Below, one piece after another: positions 4,843 through 40,721 of a DNA stretch of 42,622 bases. The stretch spans positions 1 through 42,622 of IMG/VR virus record IMGVR_UViG_3300008004_000018; one strand, 5' to 3'. Each line of letters begins with the position of its first letter. Position 1 is the stretch's first letter. This DNA is from a virus. Taxonomy: Duplodnaviria; Caudoviricetes. The notes beneath the pieces are model-generated. The model did not search any database. It had not been told where the DNA came from and worked only from the letters and a program-made list of their open reading frames with translations. The position numbers were made by a program, and so were the translations under genes.

Positions 4843-7557
4843 TTAGCCGCCGCAGGATACGCACTCATCGTCGCCTGTTTTAACAGCGGTAGTTAGGCCA
4901 GAGGTACTTCTACAGTAATATAAAGTCTTGACATGCGGTAGCTCATAGGCTAGCATATGCACCTCGTTAAAATACTTATGGTCTACATCGTGTGGGAAGA
5001 ACAAGTTAAGACTCTGAGCTTGGCAAATATGTCTACCACGTTGAGAGGCTTGTTGTACTAGCACTCTTTGGTCGATCTCATACGCAGTCCTAAATACGTC
5101 TCTCTCTAAGTCGCTTAGGAACTTAAGATGCTGTACGCTGCCTTGATTCTCATTAATACTCTTCCACACTGCGGCAGTATTCTTACCCTTACTATCCAGC
5201 AATTGTGCTAGCTGTTTATTCTTACGGCTAAACTTACCTTTATGTGTCTTGTCAGCATAGGCGTTAGCTACGTATGGTTCAATACCAAAGCTAACATCGC
5301 CGCTAATGATACTATTAGATCTCGTAGGAGCTTGAGCAAGTAGGTGTGAATTGTACATGCCGGAGCCTCTGCACCACTCAGGCTCGCCTAGTTTAGCAGC
5401 TAACTCCTTTGAGGCTTTTACCGACTTTTCTTTTATAGTAGCGAATATGTCGTTATTGAGCTGCATAGATTGAAAACTACCAAAAGGGAGCATTTTACTT
5501 TGTAGTAATGTATGCCAGCCTAGGATACCGATTCCGATAGCTCTACCTTTAACAGCACTGCGGATAGCCTTCTCTAATCCCCACACATCTTTGCCTTTAT
5601 CTATGAACTCGTTAAGTACTCCATTTAGGAAGTAAGTAGCTACTCCTGGCAGGTCTGTATCTTTCCACTCATCCCACTTAGTCACGTTTAAAGAGCTTAG
5701 GCAGCATATAAATGAATGTTGTGAGTCCGTGTGTAGTGTGATCTCCGAGCAGTTCCCAGCTAGAATACCGTTAAACATGCCCATATTACGTTTAGGCTCG
5801 TTAAAGCAATACGTATCAGATACCTCGTTAAGGTCTAGTACCTCTATAACCTTCACAAACTGCTTAGCTTCTCGATTTGGTAGCTTGTTTATATTTAGAT
5901 TTAGTCTATGACACTCTATTCCCAAATCCTTTAGCTGTAGGAGTCCTCCAGTAGGTACGAGTAGTCTGTAGATCTCTTTGGTATCGAATAGACGCTCGCC
6001 TCCTCTACCGTCAGGCATTAAAGTCTTGCCTGCTTTTTTATTTAAAGTTACTTTAGCTTCTACGCCTAAAGTCATCAACATTCTTTTAGTGTCTAGTAGA
6101 AACTGCTTATTGATAGAGGCGATTTGTAAGGATTTATTATTTCCGTTAATTGCTACCGTACCATCAGAGTCTAGTAAACCAGCAAGCCATTTTAGTCTGG
6201 TTTCTATGCTACCTGTAGGAACTTCGAACTTCTTAAAGTTATTGTTTATATGGATTCGGAGCTTTCCTGCAACTTCTCGCATAGATCTGTGCTCTTTGTA
6301 ATCGAGGTACTGTAGCAGCTCTTTCTTCTCTCCATATAAGTCAATGTGGTTTTTACCTTTATGTGAGCAGCCGTCTCCACTAAAGAATCCTTGAGTGTAA
6401 GGACTTTCAATTTCACCTTCCATATCAATTACAGGTAGGTTCCATTTAATTAACTTATCTCCAGGCTTAAGCTCAGCTGCCCTAACTTCTTTTTGATTCT
6501 TGGTGCTATAGGCTAATCCACCTCTGCCATAGGACGTTTGCAGTCTAAATTTGTGGTACGGTGTGCACTTAAGCTCTTCACCATTACTAAACCGCACTGT
6601 GCGTAATTTTTGATTCTCGCCAGTCTTTAATACCGTAGTAGTAGACCACTCTATACCGTTCCATACGGATACACGTTTATTCTCTAGGTCCTGTATACGT
6701 TTTAGTCCTTTTTTAGTTAGTATCTCAGTATCAGGGTGTACACATAGATTAGTCATCTCCACATTCAAGTTACGATCTTTATAACATTGTGGATTAGCCT
6801 CATTTACCTTGTCTAGCCACATGATATAAGATTCTCCAGTCTCTAAACGAGTCTTAAGTAGCTCTACCCACTTATGTCTAGCTAATTGATCTCCGGCTTT
6901 TACTTTTTCCATGAAGTTATCATTGATAAGTGTTGATTGATGTATATTGTGACATTGCCTGTTAACGTCGCCTTCAGGTCTTCTAGTTCTAATAAACTCT
7001 TCCCAATCAGTGTGTTCGATGTTTAGGTTAATTACAGCAGAACCTCTTCGCGAGCTGCCCTGGTTAGTCCCTAGAATAACACTATCATACATTTTCATAA
7101 AAGGTACGACACCGCTAGATTGCCCGTTTATTCCGCCTTTAATAGGAGTTCCGCGACCTCTAATCCTATCGAAGTTCACTCCAACGCCTCCGCCAGCTTT
7201 AGTAAGTCCCATAAGCTCGGACATACCTTCCCCGATCTCTTCAAGATTATCTCCAATGTCAGCTCCGAAACAACTTATAGGAAATCCTCTATCAGTACCA
7301 GAGTTAGTTAATACGGGAGTTGCTGGGCATAGCCAGCCCTTCCACATATAGTCGAAAAACTTATCTTCCATAGCAGGGTTTATGTAACTAGCGACAGATT
7401 TAGCTACACGTTTATACATACCCTTAGGAGTTTCTCCTTCAAGTAAGTAACCTCCAGATAAAGTAATTAAACCTTCTTCCGTTAAAAAATTAGGAGCTTC
7501 TCCGGCTGCTTTAAGTTCTACTAGCTCTGCTTTTAAGTCTCGTTGCTTCTTGCTCAT
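4843..7557 (-). CDS. nrdA: Class I ribonucleotide reductase alpha subunit with intein (about 573 aa after splicing, no ATP cone)
   Basis: PATPVLTN, PISCF, GGGVG, RRGS, split active site TNL|CSEI, CCLSSLN, APTRSNS, KTLYYCR and C-terminal CVSC. Confidence 0.95.
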   Translation of the reverse strand: MSKKQRDLKAELVELKAAGEAPNFLTEEGLITLSGGYLLEGETPKGMYKRVAKSVASYINPAMEDKFFDYMWKGWLCPATPVLTNSGTDRGFPISCFGADIGDNLEEIGEGMSELMGLTKAGGGVGVNFDRIRGRGTPIKGGINGQSSGVVPFMKMYDSVILGTNQGSSRRGSAVINLNIEHTDWEEFIRTRRPEGDVNRQCHNIHQSTLINDNFMEKVKAGDQLARHKWVELLKTRLETGESYIMWLDKVNEANPQCYKDRNLNVEMTNLCVHPDTEILTKKGLKRIQDLENKRVSVWNGIEWSTTTVLKTGENQKLRTVRFSNGEELKCTPYHKFRLQTSYGRGGLAYSTKNQKEVRAAELKPGDKLIKWNLPVIDMEGEIESPYTQGFFSGDGCSHKGKNHIDLYGEKKELLQYLDYKEHRSMREVAGKLRIHINNNFKKFEVPTGSIETRLKWLAGLLDSDGTVAINGNNKSLQIASINKQFLLDTKRMLMTLGVEAKVTLNKKAGKTLMPDGRGGERLFDTKEIYRLLVPTGGLLQLKDLGIECHRLNLNINKLPNREAKQFVKVIEVLDLNEVSDTYCFNEPKRNMGMFNGILAGNCSEITLHTDSQHSFICCLSSLNVTKWDEWKDTDLPGVATYFLNGVLNEFIDKGKDVWGLEKAIRSAVKGRAIGIGILGWHTLLQSKMLPFGSFQSMQLNNDIFATIKEKSVKASKELAAKLGEPEWCRGSGMYNSHLLAQAPTRSNSIISGDVSFGIEPYVANAYADKTHKGKFSRKNKQLAQLLDSKGKNTAAVWKSINENQGSVQHLKFLSDLERDVFRTAYEIDQRVLVQQASQRGRHICQAQSLNLFFPHDVDHKYFNEVHMLAYELPHVKTLYYCRSTSGLTTAVKTGDDECVSCGG
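5752..6744 (-). mobile_element. Intein with LAGLIDADG homing endonuclease (331 aa, residues 272-602 of NrdA)
   Basis: Starts CVHPDTEILT after TNL. Block B LKCTPYHKF; endonuclease motifs QGFFSGDG and WLAGLLDSDG; ends DTYCFNEPKRNMGMFNGILAGN before the +1 Cys of CSEI. Confidence 0.93.
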
Positions 7558-8535
7558 CTATTTAGTCTCCCCGTAAACTGATTCTGTAGTCATATTAGAC
7601 TTTGAATAGGCCGTTACTCTTCCACTGAAGAAATCACGAAACTCAACCCCAGCAGCCTCTTCGAAAATAGCCGCTACTTTACTAGCAGCTTTTACATCTA
7701 CACTCTTCCAATTAGAGCTTAAACCTAACTCGTTAAGCTGTGAATTAGCTCTCATACGAATAAACTGCTTAAGGTTGTATTCAGTAATACCACGCATCTC
7801 TCCGTGTTTAAACGCAGCTTCAATACTAGCGTCCTCTAACTGTACAGCTAGTCTAGCGGCCTCTACGATTTCAGTCTTAAGCTCGTCGGTTAGTAGGTTA
7901 GGATCTTCCTCTACCATAGTCCTAAATAACCAGCATCCTGCTTCAGCGTGTAAGCGCTCATCTAGAAAGCTCCAAGCTACGATTTGAGCTACACCCTCTA
8001 GCTTGCCGTACTTAGAGGGAGTCATTAGAATTGCAAAGGAGCTGAATAGTAGTACACCCTCAGCGAAGCCGCTGAATATAGCTAAGCTTCTAGCTAGGTC
8101 TTTACGGCTTTTACCTTTTAGGTCAGCTAACATATCAAACTTATTTTTAACTGAATCGTCAGCTAAAAAAGCCTCATAGTCGTCTAACCCTATGCTACTC
8201 TGTAAGTAATCGTACCCCGTTGCGTGCGTTGATTCGACCCCGCCAAATAAAGCGGCCATCATTTTAATTTCAGTGGGTCCGAAATACTTAGCCACTACTT
8301 GAGTCCAATAGTCCGCTACGAATATTTCTGTTTGTACAAAGGTCTTAACCGTCTGCCCTATAATCTGCTTTTCAGCTTCGGTAAGGTTATGTTTCCAATC
8401 TTGTATATCGCGTTCCATTGAAACTTCAAAAGGGCTCCAGTGTGCGTTGTGTTGTTTTTCCCAATACTCATAAGCTTTGGGATATTTAAACGGTTTAAAA
8501 ACGGCGTCTGCCTTGAATAACTTACTCATGCTCAA
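7558..8535 (-). CDS. nrdB: Class I ribonucleotide reductase beta subunit
   Basis: FKPFKYP, HWSPFEV, ESTHATGY, EGVLLFSSF, DERLH and DFF..RVTAY di-metal/radical-subunit motifs. Confidence 0.95.
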   Translation of the reverse strand: MSMSKLFKADAVFKPFKYPKAYEYWEKQHNAHWSPFEVSMERDIQDWKHNLTEAEKQIIGQTVKTFVQTEIFVADYWTQVVAKYFGPTEIKMMAALFGGVESTHATGYDYLQSSIGLDDYEAFLADDSVKNKFDMLADLKGKSRKDLARSLAIFSGFAEGVLLFSSFAILMTPSKYGKLEGVAQIVAWSFLDERLHAEAGCWLFRTMVEEDPNLLTDELKTEIVEAARLAVQLEDASIEAAFKHGEMRGITEYNLKQFIRMRANSQLNELGLSSNWKSVDVKAASKVAAIFEEAAGVEFRDFFSGRVTAYSKSNMTTESVYGETK

Positions 8536-8601
8536 TAGTAGCTCCTGCGTGTAGAATTTAGTGGGTTCTTTTATTTGTTGTAGAGTATTTAAAGCTGTAA
8601 G

Positions 8602-9159
8602 CTATTCGTTAGCTAAGACTTCATCTGCTAACCCCTCTTTAACCGCATCCTCGGCTGTATATGGCCTGTCAAACAGCTGTAATTTATCTAGTGCTTTTTT
8701 ATTAAATCTAGGCTTTTTATGCTTGATTCTTTGTACTAAAATATTATCTATCTTAGCTAGATACTTCCGCTCAAAGTTACGCCAAGATTCTACGTCTGCC
8801 TCATGTCCTGAGTACCCTACCTGCCCTTTATGTATCATTACGATGGAGTGTTCTGATACTATCCTGTGATCGGCTGCTTGTAGGATAACTGCCCCCATAC
8901 TACTTGCACTACCTCGTACAATAATAGTAATGTGATTAGCCGCTTGCATAATTGCGTCGTATATAGCCATTCCTGCATATATCTCTCCGCCGTCATGATT
9001 CATTATGATGGTTATAGGCTTATCTCCAGCAGGAGCGCTAGAGTCCAGAGCATGGAGATCTTTTAAGAACTTATGTAGCCTATCTGATTCAGACTCGTTC
9101 TCTGATAGCGGATTAAGCCACATAGTACGTCTCCCTAAGTCCACCCCTAGTAAGTACAT
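8602..9159 (-). CDS. clpP: ClpP-family (S14) serine protease
   Basis: GGEIYAGMAIYDAI, catalytic Ser in ASSMGAVILQAA, His in VMIH, Asp in FDRPYTAEDAVKEGLADEV. The true start may lie slightly upstream in the same open frame. Confidence 0.88.
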   Translation of the reverse strand: MYLLGVDLGRRTMWLNPLSENESESDRLHKFLKDLHALDSSAPAGDKPITIIMNHDGGEIYAGMAIYDAIMQAANHITIIVRGSASSMGAVILQAADHRIVSEHSIVMIHKGQVGYSGHEADVESWRNFERKYLAKIDNILVQRIKHKKPRFNKKALDKLQLFDRPYTAEDAVKEGLADEVLANE

Positions 9160-9173
9160 CTTCTCTAGCTGCT

Positions 9174-9680
9174 CTAGTCTACTCGTTTCAATAAATCCTC
9201 TCTAAGACTGCTACGTACCGCAGTTGCTGATAATTGCTTTTTATATGCTTCAGTCATTTTTACGTCAAGCTCATATGACGTGTGCTCAAAGTAGTCAAAG
9301 CCTAATACGTCAGATTCCTCTTTACTTGGCGTTACTGAATCAATCCACCTAACTACTTCATATTGAGCAGTGAACCTGTTAACAGTTACTATCCTGATAT
9401 AAACTGTAGCTTTTCCGTAAGGTTTGCTTATTATATCACCTGCTTTATACTGTGGTTTTAGCGTCCAGTCACCTAAGCATATAAACCTAAGGATGCTTAC
9501 CCATTTGAGGTTCAGGACGTTCTTGCGTATTAAATAACTGGCTACTAAGGTAGAGGGTACTCCTACCAGTGTTAGTAGGTTTATAGGCGGCTGCTTTACA
9601 CTGCGATCTACTACTACCACTGCGGCGGCTAGTAGATTAACAATTACCCAAACTACCGATACTACATACAACCAAGTCAT
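9174..9680 (-). CDS. Membrane-anchored member of the C-terminal-motif family
   Basis: One or two N-terminal hydrophobic helices, internal YKAGDII KOW-like motif, ends AVRSSLREDLLKRVD. Confidence 0.75.
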   Translation of the reverse strand: MTWLYVVSVVWVIVNLLAAAVVVVDRSVKQPPINLLTLVGVPSTLVASYLIRKNVLNLKWVSILRFICLGDWTLKPQYKAGDIISKPYGKATVYIRIVTVNRFTAQYEVVRWIDSVTPSKEESDVLGFDYFEHTSYELDVKMTEAYKKQLSATAVRSSLREDLLKRVD

Positions 9681-10057
9681 TTTAGCAAATCCTCTCTCAA
9701 AGCACCTCTGACTACTTGTGGTCTAGGGTCTATTTTCTTGCAATGCTTTTCATCGTGCCACCCATAAACACCGTGTGGGGTTACGCATTCCGGTAATACT
9801 GCGGTTTCTGTCGTGCTGAAATCAAAGAAATCTATGCCGACTGGGGGGTAGGTAGACATTAGTTTACCGCTACCTTCAACGTATTGTAGTAGTACGTAAT
9901 CATCTGGCTGCGGGAAAGTGTCGTTGGGGCGTGTCTCTATAGCTTTGCCGTAAGTATAATCCACTACCTCTTTACAGTCTTCCCATCTAGCTACTACTCT
10001 AAATAGGCAAATATAGCCTGCAAAAGTCACTACATCTCCAGCCTTTAATTTACTCAC
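9677..10057 (-). CDS. C-terminal-motif family protein
   Basis: Starts MSKLKAGDVV (KOW/SH3-like), ends RPQVVRGALREDLLK. Confidence 0.78.
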   Translation of the reverse strand: MSKLKAGDVVTFAGYICLFRVVARWEDCKEVVDYTYGKAIETRPNDTFPQPDDYVLLQYVEGSGKLMSTYPPVGIDFFDFSTTETAVLPECVTPHGVYGWHDEKHCKKIDPRPQVVRGALREDLLK

Positions 10058-10097
10058 TAGCTAAATCCTCCCTTAACGAGTCTCGCACTGCCTTGGG
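10050..10097. repeat. 48-bp dispersed direct repeat, copy 1 (copy 2 at 13497..13544)
   Basis: ttactcactagctaaatcctcccttaacgagtctcgcactgccttggg versus ttactcattagctaaatcctcccttaacgagtctcgcactgccttggg; one mismatch. Confidence 0.92.
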
Positions 10098-10367
10098 GCG
10101 TAGGTCTACTAATCTTAACTCCTCCTCATTTGCCCAGGTATAGTTTTTATCTCCATTACTATTTATATAAGCAGCTAAATCGCAGCTGAGGTCTACTTCG
10201 GTAACAGTTAATAGAGATGCTAGGGTTTGGTAGTCGGGCGTTAGAAGCGTGGGGTAAACGATTAACACAGTGCCATCGGCAATATCATAGCAGACTACTT
10301 CAAATAGCTGATCTGGAAGCCATCTACCATCTGACCTTACTATATCCCCTGGCTTAAACTTATTCAC
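10050..10367 (-). CDS. C-terminal-motif family protein
   Basis: Starts MNKFKPGDIV, contains WANEEELRLVD, ends RPKAVRDSLREDLASE. Confidence 0.78.
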   Translation of the reverse strand: MNKFKPGDIVRSDGRWLPDQLFEVVCYDIADGTVLIVYPTLLTPDYQTLASLLTVTEVDLSCDLAAYINSNGDKNYTWANEEELRLVDLRPKAVRDSLREDLASE

Positions 10368-10756
10368 CTATTCACCCCATACGTAATAGCTGTAGTCACT
10401 ACTGCCCCAGCCATGAAGTACAAGAAGATCTCCCAGGTCTTGCTATTCTCCGACTCTATGAGCTTTTTAGTGCTATCCTCAGCTCTAGTTCTCCATAAAT
10501 TAACCTGCTGACTTAGTACCTGATTGTCCTCTTGTATCAAGGCTATTTGCTTTGTCTGTAGACGCACGAGGTTGCTCTGTACGCCGAGTTCGTAGTTATT
10601 GAGGCGTACCTCCTTCTCAGCATCTAAAGTGAACAGGAAGCCCGTACAGGGCGTCTGAGCGCCTTCTTCTAAGTAGGTCACTGGCTTGCCACAAGCAGCA
10701 TAACTACCAATACTGTAAGTTATTGATAATACATAGGCTAGGAGTTTATTGCGCAT
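10364..10756 (-). CDS. Exported or lipoprotein-like protein with C-terminal transmembrane helix (spanin-like topology)
   Basis: Preferred start MRNKLLAYVLSITYSIGSYAA|C at 10756 (promoter immediately upstream), coiled-coil middle, hydrophobic C-terminus IFLYFMAGAVVTTAITYGV. Confidence 0.55.
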   Translation of the reverse strand: MRNKLLAYVLSITYSIGSYAACGKPVTYLEEGAQTPCTGFLFTLDAEKEVRLNNYELGVQSNLVRLQTKQIALIQEDNQVLSQQVNLWRTRAEDSTKKLIESENSKTWEIFLYFMAGAVVTTAITYGVNR

Positions 10757-10763
10757 ACTACCT

Positions 10764-10792
10764 ACTATGCCACAAATGTCTTTGGTTGGCAA
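10764..10792 (-). promoter_or_regulatory. Sigma70-type promoter with extended -10, predicted leaderless
   Basis: TTGCCA, 17-bp spacer ending TGG, CATAGT, then 7 nt to ATG at 10756. Confidence 0.5.
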
Positions 10793-10839
10793 GTATTTTA
10801 TTCATCAAGGTTTATAACAGGTTAGAACAAATTAGAGAT

Positions 10840-11097
10840 ATGTCTAAGCTTAAACGACTTCGAGAACGGCTAAAGTGTAACCAGCCTACTAGGTCTAATA
10901 GAGATGATAAGGTAAAGATGGTTAAGGCTTGCCAAGACGGTAAGGAAAAGATCATACACTTTGGCGACCCTAATCTTAGTGTTAAAAGTCATATTCCTGA
11001 GCGTAAGAAATCCTACTGTGCTAGAAGTGGCGGACTAGGTAAACTTAAAGACAAACTCAGTTCAAACTACTGGTCACGGAAAAATTGGAAATGTTAA
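10840..11097 (+). CDS. Small basic phage protein of the IHFG...RxxYxAR...SxxYWS type
   Basis: Likely start ATG at 10840 (MSKLKRL); KIIHFGD, RKKSYCAR and SSNYWSRKNW resemble a recurrent viral domain of unknown function. Confidence 0.7.
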   Translation: MSKLKRLRERLKCNQPTRSNRDDKVKMVKACQDGKEKIIHFGDPNLSVKSHIPERKKSYCARSGGLGKLKDKLSSNYWSRKNWKC

Positions 11098-11109
11098 AAG
11101 GAGAATAAT

Positions 11110-11283
11110 ATGTTTGGTGAAAATAAGAAGAAAAAGAATAAATACGGCTATAGCGAAGAAGCTAAGAAGAATTACGGAGACGCCTCTAAAGGATTCTTTA
11201 ATCGTGGCGCTTCAGACGATGAAGACGAAAAGAAGAAAAAGAAAGAGCCTGCTCTAAAAAGATTAAGGAACTTGTTTAAGTAA
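11110..11283 (+). CDS. 57-aa highly charged hypothetical protein (below the ORF-track cutoff)
   Basis: AAGGAG RBS, MFGENKKKKNKYGY...KRLRNLFK; its stop overlaps the next ATG (TAATG). Confidence 0.7.
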   Translation: MFGENKKKKNKYGYSEEAKKNYGDASKGFFNRGASDDEDEKKKKKEPALKRLRNLFK

Positions 11284-11564
11284 TGAAAGTTTTAAAAAAC
11301 ATCTGGGCGTGGGTAATTGCTGTTATCGGCTTTTTACTCGTAGCTTTAAAGATTAGCAACTCTAAAAAGAACGCAGCTGAAGCTAAGGCTGCCTTGAGCG
11401 ATACTAATAACAAACATGCTGAGCTAGAAGGTAGTCGCGCTAATATAAGAGAAAATCTAATCTACTTAGAAAAGAAAAAACAGGAGCTGATAAATTCTCA
11501 GCCCCCGTCGGGATTAACTCCTAAGCAAGTCGAAGCTTATTGGGCTTCTAAAGAGCGTAAATAG
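11283..11564 (+). CDS. Membrane protein with N-terminal TM and coiled coil (i-spanin-like)
   Basis: IWAWVIAVIGFLLVAL hydrophobic helix followed by a helical charged region. Confidence 0.55.
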   Translation: MKVLKNIWAWVIAVIGFLLVALKISNSKKNAAEAKAALSDTNNKHAELEGSRANIRENLIYLEKKKQELINSQPPSGLTPKQVEAYWASKERK

Positions 11565-12307
11565 CTTTCCAGCATCTCAACTAAATCCTCTTTAGGAACT
11601 GCTATCATCCACCCTGCGTCATTACCCGCATAGATTACGCCTACTACATTACCGAAGAAGTTTACTGTAGGAGAGCCGATACTACCTCCCAGACCATGCA
11701 CCGTAGTATGTAAGGACTCACTTACCCTAATACATACTACCATACCTTGAATTACTACGGCTACAGTGCCAGTCTTATTTATACAGTAATCATGATCTTC
11801 CTTAGATAAAATCAAGGCTAATAAGGTATTAGACTTATGTAGTCCGATGAGTTGACCTTTGGACAAGGTAAACGGCATTACAGCTGGATGCCCTACTGCC
11901 ATGACCTCTTCTCCTAGCTCATAGCGGCTAGCTAACTGCAAACCTTTTATTGAGTGTTCAGTTTGAATCTCAAGTAAGCATAAATCAGCGGGGCTTTTTA
12001 CATGCGTCTTTTTTAAGGCTAATATGCGCTCTTTTCCATTAAGCGTATAGGTAGCCTGCGCTGCATCCTCTTGTAGATCACAAATGTGATCGTTGGTGAC
12101 AGCTAAGGTTCTACCTTTATACTCTAGCACAAAGCCCGTTCCTACTGGATATCCGTGTTTATTTTTCATTAACAAGGTACTACTCTGTGTTTTACTTCTA
12201 ATGTAATTGGAATGATACTGTGGAGCCTTTAGTACCATAAAAGCCCCTGCTATAAAGCTTATGGTCAGTAGTCCTACAATAAATATATTTTCTCTAAGTC
12301 TAGTCAT
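11537..12307 (-). CDS. Trypsin-like (S1) serine protease with N-terminal membrane anchor; catalytic Ser apparently replaced by Ile
   Basis: GTGFV, VTNDHIC (His), ADLCLL (Asp), VMAVGHP; GGSIGSP where GxSSGSP/GNSGGP is expected. Confidence 0.82.
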   Translation of the reverse strand: MTRLRENIFIVGLLTISFIAGAFMVLKAPQYHSNYIRSKTQSSTLLMKNKHGYPVGTGFVLEYKGRTLAVTNDHICDLQEDAAQATYTLNGKERILALKKTHVKSPADLCLLEIQTEHSIKGLQLASRYELGEEVMAVGHPAVMPFTLSKGQLIGLHKSNTLLALILSKEDHDYCINKTGTVAVVIQGMVVCIRVSESLHTTVHGLGGSIGSPTVNFFGNVVGVIYAGNDAGWMIAVPKEDLVEMLESYLRSLEAQ

Positions 12308-12551
12308 CTAATAAATCCTTTCGTAACGCAGCTCTAACTGCTTGTGGTCTTTCGTCTTGTACTAAATAATCCTCGAACGGTTGATATTCAACGATCCCTA
12401 GTGATGTAGCCAGCTTTAGTTTGTTAGGCATAGTAGTTACCACCTTACCTACTGGTATATATCGCGGATGGTTGGGGATTTTTGTATACACCCACTGTCC
12501 TTGTTTTAGGTGTACACCTTTAATCCATATGTAGTTATTAGGGTCCGACAT
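12300..12551 (-). CDS. C-terminal-motif family protein
   Basis: LKQGQWV KOW-like motif, ends RPQAVRAALRKDLLDD. Confidence 0.75.
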   Translation of the reverse strand: MSDPNNYIWIKGVHLKQGQWVYTKIPNHPRYIPVGKVVTTMPNKLKLATSLGIVEYQPFEDYLVQDERPQAVRAALRKDLLDD

Positions 12552-12557
12552 TTATAC

Positions 12558-13211
12558 CTAGAACTCCGTAACCTGATGGGCTAGTAAATTCAGCTTTTCA
12601 ATTACTCTGCTAGGGTAGAAGGCGGCATTGGCTACAGTAACCTTACTTACACCTTCTTGCTTAGCCCTAGCAATTACTATAGCCAAAGCATCCGTTAAGT
12701 CATGTGGTATTTCCCGATTCTTCAGTGTAATGTTAGATTTAATCTCAGTAGGCAGTAGTGGGATATAGGAACGCACGCAGTCTGCTGTAGGCTTCTTATA
12801 GTCTCGCTTAGTCTTGCCGTTTACTTTTTCAGTAATAGCTTTGATTCCTAAGATACCTCTCCAACTAGAGGCTGACAGCTCGTTATAAGCTACTCGGTGC
12901 TTAGCGCAGGACTTCTCAACGAATGCGTTGATGGTAGGAATCACAGCGGCAGAGCCTAACTGTTTAGGATTCATAAAATAAGCTTCAGTAGTAGCCTCTT
13001 CTGTAATCAAGTCGCTAGCTGCTCCTCCCACTAATAAGTCTAGTCCCGAGTCCATGTACAAGAAGCGCTGCCCTCTAGACCACTTAGTTCTAGTCCACAA
13101 CATACCCGCTGCTTTTATGTACAATTCATCTGGATTTAGGTCTGCTACTACATATGCAAGGTGACTAGCTGAGGGGTCAATTGCTAATAAAGTTTTACGC
13201 TTCTTGCTCAT
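12558..13211 (-). CDS. ruvC: RuvC-like Holliday junction resolvase
   Basis: LLAIDPS, TEAYF, SSWR and DLTDALAI RuvC-fold acidic motifs. Confidence 0.8.
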   Translation of the reverse strand: MSKKRKTLLAIDPSASHLAYVVADLNPDELYIKAAGMLWTRTKWSRGQRFLYMDSGLDLLVGGAASDLITEEATTEAYFMNPKQLGSAAVIPTINAFVEKSCAKHRVAYNELSASSWRGILGIKAITEKVNGKTKRDYKKPTADCVRSYIPLLPTEIKSNITLKNREIPHDLTDALAIVIARAKQEGVSKVTVANAAFYPSRVIEKLNLLAHQVTEF

Positions 13212-13504
13212 TTTAGTAGGTCCTTTCTTAACGCAGCTCTGACTGCTTGAGGACGGCTGTCTATTAGAGTTAGTTGAGCCTCATCAGCCCACCACATCTT
13301 AGCATTGGGGTTATACTTAGTCGTATCAAAATCAGACTCATCGCCTAAGTGGGGGGACCGGTGCAACTCCCATCCGTACTTTCCTTTGGAAATTTTACAT
13401 AGTAGCCCATATGGTTTTCTCTTTTTATACACCACCATACCTACTCCCACTTCTCTATCAGAGTAGCGTATTACCACCTCATCTCCTACCTTAAACTTAC
13501 TCAT
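13208..13504 (-). CDS. C-terminal-motif family protein
   Basis: Starts MSKFKVGDEVV, contains WWADEAQLTLID, ends RPQAVRAALRKDLLK. Confidence 0.78.
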   Translation of the reverse strand: MSKFKVGDEVVIRYSDREVGVGMVVYKKRKPYGLLCKISKGKYGWELHRSPHLGDESDFDTTKYNPNAKMWWADEAQLTLIDSRPQAVRAALRKDLLK

Positions 13505-13544
13505 TAGCTAAATCCTCCCTTAACGAGTCTCGCACTGCCTTGGG
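13497..13544. repeat. 48-bp dispersed direct repeat, copy 2
   Basis: 47 of 48 bases identical to 10050..10097. Confidence 0.92.
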
Positions 13545-13880
13545 TCGATTATCTGGCATTAGAGTTATGCACTGAAAAAAGCTCATGTCGTCCCTAGTTC
13601 TAACAAACTCGTCACCTACTTTAATACTAGAATAGGCTTCTATGTGACTCGTCTTAAGCTTAGCATCTAACCTAAACGTGCAAATCTTTGAGTCCATATC
13701 TACTAAAGTTAACTCCCACACATCTATAATAGAAGCACCCTTCAAGTTATTATGTAAAATACTTACGAAGTTAGTATCATCATATAAGTATTTAGCTCCA
13801 ATTTTTAAATTGGATGGGATTACGCGTATTGTCGGATATGGGAAGGTATAGCTAGATTTAAACATACTATTAATTGACAT
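13497..13880 (-). CDS. C-terminal-motif family protein
   Basis: LKIGAKY and IKVGDEF motifs, ends RPKAVRDSLREDLANE. Confidence 0.75.
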   Translation of the reverse strand: MSINSMFKSSYTFPYPTIRVIPSNLKIGAKYLYDDTNFVSILHNNLKGASIIDVWELTLVDMDSKICTFRLDAKLKTSHIEAYSSIKVGDEFVRTRDDMSFFQCITLMPDNRPKAVRDSLREDLANE

Positions 13881-13881
13881 G

Positions 13882-15084
13882 CTACCCTAAGTATACCGGA
13901 AATGATTTATAAAAGCAAGTAGGTCTGCTATTAGTTTCTACATAAAAGTTAATAGTTTGTCCAGCATGGCTATCAAAGCCCATAATAGCAGCGTATTCGT
14001 CCTGTCCACAGAGCGATTCATTGATAATATACTTACCACGTCCTAGACATAAATATTCATGCCAATGACCTGATCTCATCATATGCAGTACTTTGCCAAA
14101 CTGTGTTGATCTAGAAGCTAGGAGTCTATCTAAGCTTCTACGCTCCGTACCTTTTAAGTTATCTCCATGTTCGTACAAGATGTTATTGCCGTATACAGAT
14201 AGTATACAGTTGCTGCCTTCAGGAATAATGAAGTTTAAGTTAGTTAACCCTTTAGCAGCTGCTAGCATTCGTAGGGTATGGTACACTACCCAGCTCATGT
14301 AATGCTTGCCTGGCTTATTCATAGTCTTCTCACGCTCAACTCGGTCATGATTACCAGTAACGCAAGGTATATCAATAGCAATCCCTAGCAAAGCTAGAGG
14401 TTCGATAAGTTCGTCAAACAATAACTCAATAGCCCAACGCATCTGCTCCGAGTTACCGAACTCACAGCCTTTAGAAGACTCCATGCCATGCATAGAGCTA
14501 GACTCAACTAAATCTCCAATCAGTGCTAGGATGACTTTATCTACATTAAAAGACTCGCTCTCTCTGGCATGTTCTTCTAAGAATACTCGACGAAGCTCGG
14601 CTAATCGGCTACGTGCTACATCTAAATTAAAGGTGTCTGTAAGCTTACCGATGTGTATGTCGCTAACCATAAGCTCCATAGTCATGCTCTTTTTCTTAGG
14701 GTTTCGTTTAGGAGCTTTAATCTTAGCTCTAGGCTTATTGAACTTAATCTTACCTAGTGCAGCTTCGATGTCTTTTAAGGTTTGATCTTTGAGTAGCTGC
14801 TTATCGCCTAGCTTACGCTCTAGCTCCTTCAGGTACTTGTTAGTAGACTGCTGCCTTCTAATATGTACTAGATCTTTCTCAGTCATAGGGAAATAGGAGC
14901 TTTTGATGGCAGGTAATCCGCCTAGTTTAGTGACATCCCAGTTACTGATACCTTCTACGGTCTTATAGATCTGAGCAGCTGTAACTTGGCTAGGGTGTAT
15001 TTCTTCTTGTATAGCTACGGTTTTAATAGCCCCTAGAATACGTGATAAGCGTTGCTCATCGGTTAGTTCTTTTTTGTTAGTCAT
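13882..15084 (-). CDS. Calcineurin-like metallophosphoesterase (large phage type)
   Basis: SDIHIG, GDLVE, GNHDR, HGD and GHWHE motifs. Start 15084 preferred (GGAG RBS); the ORF track gives 15099. Confidence 0.88.
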   Translation of the reverse strand: MTNKKELTDEQRLSRILGAIKTVAIQEEIHPSQVTAAQIYKTVEGISNWDVTKLGGLPAIKSSYFPMTEKDLVHIRRQQSTNKYLKELERKLGDKQLLKDQTLKDIEAALGKIKFNKPRAKIKAPKRNPKKKSMTMELMVSDIHIGKLTDTFNLDVARSRLAELRRVFLEEHARESESFNVDKVILALIGDLVESSSMHGMESSKGCEFGNSEQMRWAIELLFDELIEPLALLGIAIDIPCVTGNHDRVEREKTMNKPGKHYMSWVVYHTLRMLAAAKGLTNLNFIIPEGSNCILSVYGNNILYEHGDNLKGTERRSLDRLLASRSTQFGKVLHMMRSGHWHEYLCLGRGKYIINESLCGQDEYAAIMGFDSHAGQTINFYVETNSRPTCFYKSFPVYLG

Positions 15085-16024
15085 TAGGTAATTCTCCATT
15101 TTCGTAAGGTATATACGTACTAACCCAGCTATCTCTGTGCTGTTTTTTATAGTCTTCGATGGCCTTAGGATCGTTAGGTATGATACCCGAGCCTGTAATT
15201 ACATACTCGCCGCTGCTTGATAAATCCGATAAGTGGTTCTTTACTACTTTAAGCTTACAGACTGTTCCAAACACAACCTTATTTCCATTTACTGTGGCTT
15301 GTAGTCTTTTGCCTTCCTTAACCTCAATACACATGCTAAGAGGGAACCAAATCTTCTCGCCGCCATTAGGTACTATCGTAGCGATGCCGCCAGCAAACTC
15401 AGCAGGCTTTACGTAAGCTTGAGTCAAGGCTAGCAGCGTAGCTGTTCCCTTAGAGTCTTCTCTACGTGTTGCCGTCAGGCGTTTCATAATTATAGGGTTG
15501 TAATACCCTATTACAGAGGCATTCTTTTGTGGACCATATCGCTTCTTAATGGAGCCGTCTTTGCTTATTTCCATAGACTCTACTGATGGAGTAGAGGCTA
15601 CTGAGTCCCACAAGAATAATACATCATAAGGCAGTTTACCTGTTTTTACATCCTCGATCTTCTGTGATATATAATTATACACATCTTCTAGGTATTCTAG
15701 GTCTTCTCGTATGATGGCAGCCGACTTAGAAATGTCTAAGCCTTGGTTCTGTGCGTGAGTCCAGTCCATCTTGTTTTCTGTAATAATAAGTATCGGCACT
15801 ACTCCCTGACGCTGCGCTTGTACGGCAGCTTGTATCATTAGGTTAGTTTTACCTGAGTTGCTTAGTCCGTATGCTACTGACATAGTACCCTTTCGTAGCC
15901 CTGGCATACCTATGGCCTCTGATACTTCCTTTTGTAGGATGATATCCTCGTCAGGCTTATATACTACGTCTACTTTATCTTCTGAATCTGAATAAGCTTC
16001 TAAATCGAACTTCTTTTTACTCAT
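15077..16024 (-). CDS. RecA/UvsX-like recombinase ATPase
   Basis: Walker A GLSNSGKT, ITENK, Walker B FLWDSVAS, PNGGEKIWF, KVVKNH. Start at MSKKKF (16024), directly downstream of a promoter. Confidence 0.87.
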   Translation of the reverse strand: MSKKKFDLEAYSDSEDKVDVVYKPDEDIILQKEVSEAIGMPGLRKGTMSVAYGLSNSGKTNLMIQAAVQAQRQGVVPILIITENKMDWTHAQNQGLDISKSAAIIREDLEYLEDVYNYISQKIEDVKTGKLPYDVLFLWDSVASTPSVESMEISKDGSIKKRYGPQKNASVIGYYNPIIMKRLTATRREDSKGTATLLALTQAYVKPAEFAGGIATIVPNGGEKIWFPLSMCIEVKEGKRLQATVNGNKVVFGTVCKLKVVKNHLSDLSSSGEYVITGSGIIPNDPKAIEDYKKQHRDSWVSTYIPYENGELPND

Positions 16025-16031
16025 ACGTACT

Positions 16032-16060
16032 ACTATACAGTATTGGAACATTATATGCAA
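16032..16060 (-). promoter_or_regulatory. Sigma70-type promoter, predicted leaderless transcript of the RecA-like gene
   Basis: TTGCAT, 17-bp spacer, TATAGT, then 7 nt to the ATG. Confidence 0.55.
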
Positions 16061-16084
16061 GTAATTTATTTATCGTAAATATAC

Positions 16085-16113
16085 TTGACATCTGGCACGA
16101 TCTTTGCTATAAT
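16085..16113 (+). promoter_or_regulatory. Consensus sigma70 promoter with a nested sigma54 (-24/-12) consensus
   Basis: TTGACA-N17-TATAAT with TGn extended -10. CTGGCACGATCTTTGCT (16092-16108) matches YTGGCACGrNNNTTGCW. Confidence 0.85.
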
Positions 16114-16130
16114 ATAGATACACAAGGACG

Positions 16131-16748
16131 GTGATAAGGCTTATGGATGAGCCCTCTAATAACAATAAAGACGAATTTCTACTAGATATTGACGACTTAA
16201 TCGAAGCGGCTAGCTCCGAATCAGAAACCTTTTCTACAGAAGCTTCATCTCTAGACCCCTACCATATTCAGGTTCGAGACTTCATCAGGGAGCAAAAGCT
16301 ATTAGCTGGAGCTACTTATGTCCCGTCTGATGTGGTCTATATGAAATATTCTGACTGGAGCCCTAACCCTTGCACTAAGCATAAGTTTACCTCCATCATG
16401 CAAACCTACTACACAACACGTAGAATCATGGGCTATACTTGCATGAAACTAGACCCCGAGTCCTTGGGGCTACCTCCTTACTATACTATCTATAAAGACG
16501 CAGCCTTCAACAAGAAGGGTCGGAAGTTCGACAGCTCCTATGAGGGCGTCTATAAAGCCTCAGGTTACTTCATATCGCGAATTAAGCTAGAAGATGGCAC
16601 TCACTACCTAGGTCAATTTAAGACCGACAGGCTGGCTGCTATGGAGTATGACAGGCACGCATTATATCACTTCGGACCTACTACTAAGTTAAACTTCCCT
16701 GAAAGGCTAGCAACATATGAGCAAGAACTCAAAGAAAAAGAAGACTAA
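16131..16748 (+). CDS. AP2-domain DNA-binding protein with a possible winged-helix middle domain
   Basis: C-terminal SSYEGV...ISRI...HYLGQFKTDRLAAMEYDRHALYHFGPTTKLNFP is an AP2 fold; no HNH motif; acidic N-terminus. Confidence 0.8.
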   Translation: MIRLMDEPSNNNKDEFLLDIDDLIEAASSESETFSTEASSLDPYHIQVRDFIREQKLLAGATYVPSDVVYMKYSDWSPNPCTKHKFTSIMQTYYTTRRIMGYTCMKLDPESLGLPPYYTIYKDAAFNKKGRKFDSSYEGVYKASGYFISRIKLEDGTHYLGQFKTDRLAAMEYDRHALYHFGPTTKLNFPERLATYEQELKEKED

Positions 16749-17160
16749 ATACAATCAACAGCAGTATGCATCGTTTAACCCTAAATACCAAGTGGGTAAT
16801 AGAAGATCACTACTTACAGATATTGATTATCTAGATAAACTCAACGATGAAGAAAAGGAATGGCTTAATAGGTTCTTGCAAGAAACTGTGGTCACTAATT
16901 TTAATCATGGCGGGGAAACTCTTATTGACGACCCTGAAAAGCGTAGAGCCTTATACAGAGAGAATAACGCTAGGAATAGGGATATGTATAACTTATACAG
17001 GGCTAAGGGAGTATTCTTGAATGATAAAGAGTCAGACGACTTCAGACCTGACATGGATGACAGATTGCAAGTTTATAAGGGTGTAGATGTTAGCAAAGCT
17101 GAGCAAGAAAACTGGATGACTACCTTACTATTTATTAAGAAGAAGTTAGAAGATCGTTAA
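16717..17160 (+). CDS. Hypothetical protein
   Basis: 147-aa ORF overlapping the AP2 gene; DYLDKLNDEEKEWLNRF and NNARNRD segments. Confidence 0.75.
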   Translation: MSKNSKKKKTKYNQQQYASFNPKYQVGNRRSLLTDIDYLDKLNDEEKEWLNRFLQETVVTNFNHGGETLIDDPEKRRALYRENNARNRDMYNLYRAKGVFLNDKESDDFRPDMDDRLQVYKGVDVSKAEQENWMTTLLFIKKKLEDR

Positions 17161-17558
17161 GACCAGAACATCTTATAGATGCCAGCCACTGTAGCCGCTA
17201 TACCAGCTAACCAAGCTAATCCTTTAGCTACTATAATAGGCTTTTGCAAATCAGCCATTTGAGCAGCTACTAGTGTTTTATGCATGTCCAGCTTCTCACG
17301 TTCAATCCTATTAGCTTCTCTAAGCTCTAGAACTCCTGCAATGTGAATCTGCAGTTCTTTGTTATATTCACCTACTAGAATGTCTAGCTTTTCTAGATTC
17401 TTATCCATACGCCCAATACAATTAGCTACTTCAGTATGTTGTTCGATTTGGTCTTCTATTAAAACTTTCTGTAATTGCAGATCAGTGCGCACTTCATATA
17501 CGTCATCCTGCAAGGCATCTACTTTGTTTAATAGTCTTTCTAGTGTATTAGAGTCCAT
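17157..17558 (-). CDS. Coiled-coil protein with C-terminal transmembrane helix
   Basis: Heptad-rich body and a GLAWLAGIAATVAGIY terminus; last gene of the late operon. Confidence 0.7.
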   Translation of the reverse strand: MDSNTLERLLNKVDALQDDVYEVRTDLQLQKVLIEDQIEQHTEVANCIGRMDKNLEKLDILVGEYNKELQIHIAGVLELREANRIEREKLDMHKTLVAAQMADLQKPIIVAKGLAWLAGIAATVAGIYKMFWS

Positions 17559-38599: not shown

Positions 38600-39817
38600 T
38601 TAGCTATTAGTAATGCCAGTAACCAAGATAAGTTGGTTAGGGGCGTGGCAGAATAGAGCTAGGTCGCAGTATGCGCGGAGCTCAAACCCAGCACTAGCTT
38701 GCAATTCTCGGAAGAACCTATCATTATCGTGTCCTGGCAATTGGAACGTGATGTCGGTAGAACCAATCAACTGAACCGCTTTATCAGGCATGATGAACGC
38801 TAGGGACTCTTTAACGTAGCTGCAAGGTACGATTTCAATAGGACCAGTCTGACCGTAGAACTTAATAGACTCAGAACCATTCTCAGAAACTGAGCGGCTG
38901 TAAGAGCTGTCAAGCATACGAAGAGCAGCTTGGTCGCTAAGAAGCTCAGCCCAAGTGCGGTTAGAAACTAGAACTTTAACTCCAGAATCAAGACCACGAG
39001 CAGCGCCCTTAGAGATAGCTTCTTGAATCTTCTCGAAAGAAAGATCAGCGCCACCAGCAGCATACTCAGTTGCACGCCATACGTTGAAAGACTGAGGGTT
39101 GATACCGAACAAGTCAGTAGAACCATCAGAGTAGGCAGTCATGATACCATGAAGACCCAGCATTTCTTTCCACTCAGTAGCAGCGTCGTCGTAAGCGCCT
39201 TCGAACATAACTCTGTCACCAGCAGTCAAAGTAAGAGCTGCGCCGTCAACAGTGATAGTTTTAGTATCAAGGTTGATTCCTGTGATAGTACGTGCTGTAG
39301 AAGTACGGTCAGTAGCTAGGTCAGAAGAGAAGATCTCGACTTTAGCACCTTCCAAACCGTTCCAGATACCAGGAGCCCAAGAAGCGTCACTGATTACTAG
39401 AGTGTTTACAGCTGAAGTGTTAGCGTTAACTAGGCCGATTTCTTTTTGTCCGTAGAACATAGAGATCTCTAGACGCTTAGCGAAAGAGCGAAGCATGTCA
39501 GCTACGATGAGCTTAGTAGCTTGCTCGAAAGCTGCAGGGGAAGCTGCGGATCGAGATACTGCGTCGTAAGAAAGCTTAGTTCGAGCTACCATAGAGTAAC
39601 CTTTAATAGAAGCGTTCTTAGTTTGAGCAGCTACTGCATCGTTGAGGTCATAAGCGTCACCGTCAGATCCACCATAAGTGAAACCTTGAGATTGCTTAAC
39701 GATTACTGGTTGTTGGTAAGCGTCACCGAGCTTTTTAGCTGCGTTGAACTTAACCATGTTATAAAGAACTACGTTGTCCGGGATGAGGTTTTCTACCTTG
39801 TCGGCGTATACTTTTTT
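38600..39817 (-). CDS. Major capsid protein, exon 2
   Basis: The frame extends 20 codons upstream of the tracked ATG (KKVYADKVENLIPDNVVLYN) to the intron's terminal G. HK97-type P22-coat-like features, high-expression-type codon usage, downstream of the scaffold gene. Confidence 0.88.
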   Translation of the reverse strand, partial: KKVYADKVENLIPDNVVLYNMVKFNAAKKLGDAYQQPVIVKQSQGFTYGGSDGDAYDLNDAVAAQTKNASIKGYSMVARTKLSYDAVSRSAASPAAFEQATKLIVADMLRSFAKRLEISMFYGQKEIGLVNANTSAVNTLVISDASWAPGIWNGLEGAKVEIFSSDLATDRTSTARTITGINLDTKTITVDGAALTLTAGDRVMFEGAYDDAATEWKEMLGLHGIMTAYSDGSTDLFGINPQSFNVWRATEYAAGGADLSFEKIQEAISKGAARGLDSGVKVLVSNRTWAELLSDQAALRMLDSSYSRSVSENGSESIKFYGQTGPIEIVPCSYVKESLAFIMPDKAVQLIGSTDITFQLPGHDNDRFFRELQASAGFELRAYCDLALFCHAPNQLILVTGITNS

Positions 39818-40721
39818 CGTTATATTCCCGTATTACTACGGGCACTGACTATATCATCACCTTTTTCAAGGGTCTGGCGCTGTAAAAGCCTTTGTTGGTA
39901 AATGGTTTCTATGTATCTAAATTTATAGCGCATAGATTTGAATTGAAGAATAAACTCTCTAACATACTCCCACAGTTTAAGTGAGTCCGCCTGTCCAAAT
40001 TTAAGGTAAGGGTAGTGCTTGTTACGTTTAGAGCTTTTTTGCGATCCAAATTTAACATTAACATTAAAATTGTCGCTAAACCAAAGTCTAATCTTATCTA
40101 GAGATTCTATAGATTCGCTACATAGGTAGATTCTAACTCTACCTCCGTATAACTTTTTTCCGCTTTTAATTTTAGATATCGAGGGTTCTATATACCCGTC
40201 ATCTATTAAAAGCATAGCTAACGCCATTTCAGGATGCTCTACGAACCTTAGCATTCTAGATAGGTCCTTGGAGTTATTTGGATAGCACCATTTTCTCCAT
40301 GATCTAAGACGCTTAACGCATACTGAAACTTGTAAGGCTCCATTTGATTGAGGTCTTACATTAACAGTACGGTTGAATATCTTAGATAGTAAGGAAGCTT
40401 TCCACTTAAGGATATCGGCTTGTTCTTTACAGTGACCTATTGTAAGTCCTCCGTATAGCTTGCCTGCATTTCTTATGTAATGCAAACAACCGTCTCCCAT
40501 AGCTAAACACATAACTAGACTACGTTTATCTCTATTATTCATTTTTTACCTCTAACCCGCTTATAGCGATCAAGATTACTTAGCTTTTTAGTCGATGAAC
40601 CTTCCGACTTAGTTTGTCGGCTTGGCTGCTGATTGCCCTAGATTACTAGGGTTTCCAGCAATTCACCAGATTTTCTAGCATAATGCTAGGAGGGGTCTAA
40701 CCTCAACTATTCTAAAAGTTA
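39818..40721 (-). ncRNA. Group I self-splicing intron (904 nt, IA-like) in the major capsid gene
   Basis: 5' exon ends in U and the intron ends in G. P AAUUGCUGGAAA, Q AAUCAGCAG, R GUUCAUCGACUA, S AUGAUAUAGUC; P3 UCUGGUG/CGCCAGA; P7 GACUA/UAGUC; P9 CCCGUA-GUAA-UACGGG. Splicing restores the frame. Confidence 0.92.
39820..40542 (-). CDS. Intron-encoded double-motif LAGLIDADG homing endonuclease/maturase
   Basis: LVMCLAMGDGCL and ALAMLLIDDGYI motifs, SMRYKF near the end; lies inside the intron. Confidence 0.88.
   Translation of the reverse strand: MNNRDKRSLVMCLAMGDGCLHYIRNAGKLYGGLTIGHCKEQADILKWKASLLSKIFNRTVNVRPQSNGALQVSVCVKRLRSWRKWCYPNNSKDLSRMLRFVEHPEMALAMLLIDDGYIEPSISKIKSGKKLYGGRVRIYLCSESIESLDKIRLWFSDNFNVNVKFGSQKSSKRNKHYPYLKFGQADSLKLWEYVREFILQFKSMRYKFRYIETIYQQRLLQRQTLEKGDDIVSARSNTGI

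Follow-up and report, generated by a model that had tools for sequence, protein, structure and literature searches.

The DNA analysed here, referred to as the window, is a stretch of 42,622 nucleotides from a virus of the Caudoviricetes (IMG/VR record IMGVR_UViG_3300008004_000018), part of a phage genome in which genes for ribonucleotide reductase, Erf, RecA-like and RuvC-like proteins, capsid, and tail are recognised. Within the window, and across the larger genome to which it belongs, small non-structural proteins with mostly dissimilar bodies end in one short predicted helix, hereafter the C-terminal tail. Because this tail is selected as a peptide, terminal, portable across folds, and re-coded genome-wide between related phages, we infer that it is a docking label with one co-changing partner. 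Overall, we propose that 29 small non-structural proteins share a selected docking label for a single phage-encoded partner, likeliest a MoxR-type AAA+ ATPase/metallopeptidase-vWA pair, and we put the probability of this reading at roughly 45%.

A C-terminal tail recurring across the non-structural genes

That six open reading frames (ORFs) of the window share a C-terminal motif had been proposed in a reading of the letters alone (the sequence-only reading), and the ORF coordinates, a six-frame scan, and an unbiased comparison of C-termini confirm it. All six ORFs lie on the minus strand and carry the motif R-P-[QK]-[AV]-V-R-x-x-L-R-[EK]-D-L, or a close variant, 2–5 residues from the stop. The motif core occurs six times in the six frames of the window, in 6/6 cases at an ORF end, and the unbiased comparison scored 16 of 1326 pairs of C-termini as similar, versus 0.5 for internal windows of the same proteins. 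None of the six proteins matches a Pfam or PHROGs family at E < 0.001. The ORFs and their tail cores, with lengths in amino acids (aa), are:

9174..9680 (−): tail ORF, 168 aa (165 aa, 9183–9680, in the majority allele); tail core SATAVRSSLREDL at 9192–9230 (−)
9677..10057 (−): tail ORF, 126 aa, KOW-like start; tail core RPQVVRGALREDL at 9686–9724
10050..10367 (−): tail ORF, 105 aa, KOW-like start; tail core RPKAVRDSLREDL at 10062–10100
12300..12551 (−): tail ORF, 83 aa, overlapping the start of a trypsin-like gene; tail core RPQAVRAALRKDL at 12312–12350
13208..13504 (−): tail ORF, 98 aa, overlapping the start of a RuvC-like gene; tail core at 13217–13255
13497..13880 (−): tail ORF, 127 aa; tail core RPKAVRDSLREDL at 13509–13547

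Judged by its hydrophobic N-terminus, ORF 9174 is probably membrane-anchored. The two lengths given for this ORF reflect a polymorphism at position 9185, where the window has the minority allele and the other letter is found in a 78-kb contig described below and in 3/3 DNA runs. With the majority allele, ORF 9174 ends LLK-stop and clpP begins at an overlapping ATG, coupling both genes; the minority allele abolishes both the stop and the ATG.

A scan with the tail pattern recovered a 78,201-base metagenome contig (L008, L009, L011–L013) that is near-identical to the window, with 2 differing positions in the 23.5 kb compared base by base. Its ends overlap, and the genome is therefore circular or terminally redundant; a further sequence with portal and terminase genes (L069) bridges the single uncovered stretch. 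A profile grown from the six window tails was run on the window, L008, and L009 with a cut-off of 18 bits. It found 29 sites of at least 18 bits, which comprise 27 ORF ends, one internal site, and one out-of-frame remnant, as against 0.1 sites per copy on average in ten shuffles of the sequence. Inspection by eye added two weaker ORF ends, at 15.3 and 4.0 bits, for a total of 29 ORFs that end in the tail. These make up 29 of the 89 genes in the non-structural arc of a hand-corrected gene list, about a third, and 23 of them lie outside the window. The set of six in the sequence-only reading is thus real, but amounts to about a fifth of what the genome holds. Tail genes sit before thyX, DNA polymerase, RuvC, clpP, and the trypsin-like gene alike, and no tail was found among the 27 ORFs of the virion block of the window or in the portal/terminase bridge.

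The tail seems confined to this phage in the collections searched. The strict tail pattern hit one locus in viral contigs, from the same phage, and ten stretches in metagenome contigs, six from the same phage and four by chance, inside ORFs or far from their ends. All 12 matches of a tail-alignment search of a protein collection (8000 candidates scored) are the phage's own proteins, and the two weak matches of the profile among solved structures, ATP synthase subunit e (E 0.36) and MbtH (E 1.1), were taken as chance. Apart from the runs that may be its source, the phage itself was detected in two aquifer studies and one hot-spring study. Its nearest GenBank record is a Silvanigrella phage at 25–27% identity, too distant for host assignment. 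Contigs from an RNA run cover 14 of 30 bins of the region, which does not by itself demonstrate transcription.

Codon usage indicates which level of the tail is under selection. For residues shared among the 29 tails, the rate of codon agreement equals or approaches the expectation from genome usage at 12 of 13 positions (for instance, 0.25 versus 0.24 at Arg+1 and 0.52 versus 0.50 at Asp+7), lying slightly above it at Leu+4 and Leu+8 (0.36–0.39 versus 0.28). The exception is Glu+6, encoded by GAG in 18/19 tails as against 175/313 occurrences in long genes. Since synonymous sites of the tail stand at the usage expectation, selection acts on the peptide. In 23 of the 29 tails, the last Leu codon is followed at 4–5 nt by an out-of-frame start; the Arg-Glu-Asp codons, Glu+6 included, contain a Shine-Dalgarno match in 20/23 of these coupled tails versus 1/6 of the uncoupled ones. 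The six tails without a coupled gene nevertheless have the peptide, five of them with no Shine-Dalgarno match. This retention, together with the saturated synonymous sites, argues for a role of the protein, with the last codons doubling as the ribosome-binding site of the next gene. Promoter and terminator matches in 7000–17500 were not above shuffled sequence (18 versus 23.7 and 5 versus 6.5, respectively).

Some junctions have been copied as DNA. The tail-plus-junction DNA of ORF 13497 is 91% identical over 68 nt to 10033–10100, and a second pair is 94% identical over 51 nt, the similarity extending into the next gene. Recent DNA copying of this kind suggests a route by which new genes may acquire the tail. 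Two further arrangements were seen in the extended genome. A two-domain ORF (L009 2451–3020) has an internal tail lacking Asp-Leu and an intact terminal tail, as in a fusion of two tail genes; its single-sequence fold had a predicted local distance difference test (pLDDT) score of 31 and was unusable. At L008 13020–13067, a well-preserved tail lies out of frame within ORF 12950–13372, directly before an internal ATG, and is apparently what is left of a tail gene that a deletion and fusion removed.

The bodies that carry the tail are diverse. Stripped of their tails, the 29 proteins fall into 22 BLAST components, and 18 of the 29 have a KOW-like start. The sequence-only reading had described the bodies as unalignable; most are indeed dissimilar, but the description fails for ORF 13208, 50% identical over 82 aa to a paralogue beyond the window, and for ORF 10050, whose body is 32–36% identical to two such paralogues. 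The model of ORF 13208 (pLDDT 75) consists of a five-strand SH3-like barrel (residues 2–83) followed by the terminal tail helix (residues 84–96, pLDDT near 89). The barrel matches PWWP, Tudor, and KOW domains, with a best Z score of 6.6 and a root-mean-square deviation of 2.3 over 55 residues. SH3-like barrels dominate the structure matches listed, no family is singled out (Foldseek E > 0.07), and the tail helix falls outside most of the aligned ranges. Among the 23 tail proteins beyond the window, one has a PHROG match, of unknown function, and one resembles a counter-defence protein:

L009 9493–10179: predicted Gad2-like nucleotidyltransferase with tail, 228 aa (features 0.96; TM 0.61/0.77 to Gad2 clusters, residues 1–164)

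Here too, the tail lies beyond the Gad2-aligned part. An older Pfam copy gave no match for this protein, and models of CCA-adding enzymes and poly(A) polymerases fit about equally well by structure. On these models and predictions, the tail is portable across unrelated bodies, including SH3-like barrels, a probably membrane-anchored protein, and a Gad2-like nucleotidyltransferase. An architecture of variable body and constant C-terminal helix under protein-level selection, which had been proposed from the six window ORFs, is upheld by the codon data and the ORF 13208 model, and the predicted Gad2-like member lends support to the accompanying idea that some bodies act on host defence.

Within the tail, hydrophobic residues occupy positions 0, 4, and 8, and Arg and acidic residues alternate. 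The hydrophobic moment of this phage's tail peaks at 75–80 degrees and not at 100, hence the helix would be only moderately amphipathic. A plain degron was considered and is unlikely, as the last residues vary and are often acidic; acidic C-terminal ends disfavour ClpXP.

Different tails in related phages

Two relatives have tails of their own. In G001, whose capsid and terminase are 79% and 76% identical to those of this phage, 14 ORFs end in K-x-x-x-V-x-x-E-V-x-[ED]-W-L, 1–3 residues from the stop. In L072, with a terminase 65% identical, five ORFs end in V-K-x-[AK]-[VI]-K-x-W. The unbiased comparison of C-termini scored 89 of 1128 pairs as similar in G001 (control 0.55) and 6 of 325 in L072 (control 0.3); no more than three similar pairs turned up in any of the structural regions or the five unrelated loci. 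Scored with the G001 profile, four of the five L072 tails rank above every one of 335 background C-termini, and the G001 and L072 tails are therefore related. The tails of the three phages together share only the terminal position and the hydrophobic spacing 0, 4, 8.

A gene beside the dCTP-deaminase/terminase block is syntenic in the three phages and carries the local tail in each, which suggests that the tail changed in concert, or was replaced wholesale, in each lineage. A search for further orthologues of this gene returned none beyond the three input sequences. The G001-tail pattern hit 34 stretches and was multi-copy only in three from G001, and a terminase search of genome contigs yielded 0 of 47 candidates. 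In one relative, the thyX-like gene (L031 6786–8666) encodes 626 aa, as opposed to about 220 aa in the other two phages, which suggests a large insertion.

A candidate partner and competing explanations

The genome encodes a pair of proteins that could read the tail. An AAA_5 (MoxR-type) ATPase gene is followed by a DUF2201 metallopeptidase-vWA gene (PF07728, PF13203, and PF09967, all above cut-off); the two are adjacent across the redundant ends of the contig and lie two genes upstream of the first tail array. Phage MoxR/peptidase-vWA pairs have been proposed as chaperone-peptidase machines (PMC7824862). It is probable that the tail docks on one common protein partner. Whether that partner is phage-encoded we rate at somewhat under an even chance: turnover of the tail would fit a phage gene better than a conserved host protein, although different hosts could explain it. 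The MoxR/vWA pair, as the specific partner, is a tentative choice and rated lower still.

In the mechanism we envisage, the 13-residue predicted helix would serve as an address label for one partner, with one reader per phage lineage changing together with all tails. The bodies would form a swappable library of host-interaction domains that the ATPase gathers, remodels, or releases. The tail would spread by recombination at the tail/Shine-Dalgarno/start junction, which would provide every newly inserted gene with a ribosome-binding site ahead of it and a tail after it. Taken as a whole, such private addressing, in which a MoxR-type chaperone-peptidase reads a helix on a third of the accessory proteome, genes acquire the label at a junction that doubles as the source of the next ribosome-binding site, and lock and key change together in each lineage, is more unlikely than likely in all its parts. 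If true, it would insulate the counter-defence arsenal from co-infecting relatives and host decoys.

Several observations weigh against the proposal of a label read by a phage-encoded partner. The relatives' tails are not significantly similar to those of this phage (mean −10.8 bits versus a background of −15.0 ± 5.6), so that common descent of the tails rests on position and helical spacing. The pairwise similarity of the syntenic gene is weak, at 30–34% (E 0.002 and 8e-4), and G001 and L072 are fragments that do not reach the ATPase region. With KOW-like starts in 18 of 29 bodies, some of the tail proteins may simply descend from a single old family of paralogues. Tail genes do not cluster around the ATPase and vWA genes, which have one and two of them, respectively, within three genes compared with a mean of 1.78. 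Moreover, two cultured phages, GAP31 and Av-05, which have a MoxR homologue of 32–35% identity and a similar peptidase gene nearby, show no comparable set in the 30–40 kb around it: 0 of 2145 C-terminal pairs are similar in GAP31, and 7 of 2278 in Av-05, against a control of 2.6 and with a largest cluster of four. A search of viral contigs for the ATPase gave no match; its homologues P0016 and P0018 are found on contigs of 77 kb and 40 kb, respectively. The last helix of the ATPase itself (L008 16003–17106), which looks similar to the tail by eye, was tried as a tail and rejected, because it ranks 13th among 335 background C-termini and other members of the ATPase family have it too. Two ORFs of Av-05 that lie in a T4-like block, L076 12392–12883 and 13571–13876, end in F-I-x-E-C-R.

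The sequence-only reading had tied the tail proteins to two proteases. The genes concerned, and the resolvase gene that lies among the tail ORFs with them, are:

8602..9159 (−): stand-alone ClpP-like protease, PF00574 E 4e-26 (start 9186, 194 aa in the majority allele)
11537..12307 (−): trypsin/HtrA-like protein, PF13365 E 1e-13, hydrophobic N-terminus
12558..13211 (−): RuvC-like resolvase between tail ORFs, phrog_159 E 1e-5

The ClpP-like protein scores 92 bits against PF00574 (cut-off 20), and its Ser-His-Asp triad, aligned to solved ClpPs, is intact, as had been claimed. The trypsin-like protein keeps His and Asp but has Ile at the catalytic Ser of HtrA/DegP (GSIGSP versus GNSGGP; codon 11678–11680), with no other letter in the 3/3 covering DNA runs; the protein is therefore probably inactive, a probable membrane-anchored pseudo-protease. 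Three tail genes lie within three genes of clpP, and 15 of 60 non-tail arc genes have as many or more; the DNA polymerase gene has five. The placement of the RuvC-like gene shows that replication genes are flanked as readily as proteases. Two other phage loci with a stand-alone clpP (L002 and L003; 36–38% identity) lack a tail set, so the co-occurrence with clpP that the sequence-only reading had put forward as a test is not found. Because clpP is unenriched, 23 of the 29 tail genes lie outside the window, and these two loci have no tail set, the association with proteases is an effect of the window. With tails genome-wide and the trypsin-like Ser lost, the tie to both proteases is not supported; ClpP and the trypsin-like protein appear as neighbours of the tail genes.

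These results bear directly on the possibility that the tail docks on a host protein, such as an unfoldase, or on the phage ClpP, with the bodies acting as proteolysis adaptors or recruiters. An intact ClpP triad, three tail genes directly upstream, and coupling of the last to clpP in the majority allele speak for it, as does the resemblance of a variable body with a short C-terminal docking tail to SspB (PMC8138137) and the existence of a phage adaptor-like protein for ClpCP (PMC6873191). The Lon regulator HspQ is also among the SH3-like fold matches, at rank 39 of 50 (Z 5.6, tied with many). The SspB tail, however, binds ClpX and not ClpP (PMC8138137), and the genome map shows no ClpX, ClpA, or ClpC gene. 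The lack of enrichment at clpP, the missing Ser of the trypsin-like protein, and the L002 and L003 loci count against a Clp adaptor, and a complete change of tail at 65–76% terminase identity would fit a conserved host partner less well, though different hosts could explain it. We regard this possibility as improbable. A tail that instead binds itself, as a self-association helix building mixed oligomers or a membrane-tethered scaffold, would also force a joint change of all tails in one genome. The hydrophobic spacing 0, 4, 8 with alternating Arg and acidic residues and the confidently predicted helix (pLDDT near 89) are compatible with such a role, the hydrophobic N-terminus of one member could tether the assembly, and one ORF has two tail copies. 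But a core of about three turns would be short for a stable coiled coil, and the internal tail copy lacks Asp-Leu, which makes self-association distinctly improbable.

Little probability attaches to two further explanations. The tail might be an expression or shuffling cassette, serving as ribosome-binding site and recombination junction or as a peptide that acts on the terminating ribosome. The 23 of 29 coupled starts, the Shine-Dalgarno match in 20 of those 23, the junctions copied as DNA, and the out-of-frame remnant all suit this explanation, and there are known repeats, the PeSLs, by which accessory genes are shuffled (PMC2839356). Upstream of the Shine-Dalgarno codons, however, nine residues are conserved although their synonymous sites are saturated, which a role as DNA or RNA fails to explain, and six uncoupled copies keep the peptide; an effect of the nascent peptide is possible, but a wholesale difference between related phages would then be unexpected. 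Alternatively, the tail could be a virion-loading signal, with the tagged proteins packed in the head and injected with the DNA in the manner of T4 internal proteins, which are diverse counter-defence proteins with no more in common than a targeting sequence (PMC3012670). The reader, as a head protein, would be encoded by the phage and co-evolve with the tail, and one tail protein is predicted to be Gad2-like. Against this stand capsids and terminases that are 65–79% identical between relatives while the tail is replaced, one apparently membrane-anchored member, and the N-terminal position of the T4 signal, as opposed to the C-terminal tail here.

Other genome features and comparison with known systems

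Further features of the genome were observed apart from the tails. At 38600–40542 of the window, the capsid ORF is ~33 N-terminal residues shorter than that of a relative in L015; a LAGLIDADG endonuclease gene stands before it, and the capsid gene may contain an intron. A putative intein-like insertion of ~330 residues interrupts the large ribonucleotide reductase subunit (4843–7557), whose PHROG match falls in two stretches. At 16050–16113, the plus strand has a perfect sigma-70 consensus that includes an extended −10 (16085–16113); it stands back to back with a minus-strand match facing the recA-to-nrd operon. In the 78-kb contig, ORFs encode a PHB-accumulation-regulator DNA-binding domain (L009 1955–2191), a secreted subtilase (L008 6877–7587), and a collagen-repeat lipoprotein-like protein (L008 13359–13844).

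Most phage accessory genes are orphans that seem functionally independent. A shared, selected tail on a third of the non-structural genes, replaced genome-wide, implies a common partner organising much of the accessory proteome. The tail, being short, is a ready bait for that partner, and its three natural versions suit a swap comparison. It also provides a means of finding candidate counter-defence proteins, among them the Gad2-like member. Should the proposed docking label be read by the MoxR/vWA pair, phage pairs of this type would gain a testable client set. No description of such a shared-tail system was found in the literature covered, mostly without subscription journals and without supplements. 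This case contributes the tail swap among three related phages, including the syntenic gene, and the predicted Gad2-like cargo; the mechanism is what we infer from the architecture.

The T4 capsid targeting sequence is N-terminal and cleaved. It is likewise one short signal on many small, diverse proteins, some of them anti-defence (PMC3012670). Unlike the T4 signal, the tail is C-terminal, with 2–5 residues between it and the stop in the 27 strong copies at ORF ends, occurs on about 29 genes over the non-structural arc including an apparently membrane-anchored member, overlaps a ribosome-binding site, and is replaced between relatives. Among proteolysis adaptors, SspB has a C-terminal XB tail that binds ClpX's zinc-binding domain (PMC8138137), and phage SPO1 has an adaptor-like protein for ClpCP (PMC6873191). 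The likeness to SspB lies in a folded body with a short C-terminal docking element and in a ClpP encoded nearby. The systems differ in that SspB is one adaptor per system as against 29 bodies here, with no Clp unfoldase seen in the phage and no enrichment at clpP.

The PeSL cassettes of T4-like phages are likewise a repeated element among accessory genes and a possible recombination junction (PMC2839356), but they consist of non-coding promoter/stem-loop DNA, whereas the tail element encodes a peptide and its synonymous sites are saturated. Gad2, a predicted nucleotidyltransferase, acts as an inhibitor of Gabija (bioRxiv 10.1101/2023.05.01.538930); the protein at L009 9493–10179 has a similar predicted fold, with 228 aa compared with 400 aa for the tested Gad2 and with the tail added. 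Closest to the partner we propose is the described MoxR/vWA pair, which has the same adjacent AAA_5 ATPase and DUF2201 peptidase-vWA genes as this phage; for that pair, a part in assembling the virion was proposed, and no tagged clients were named (PMC7824862).

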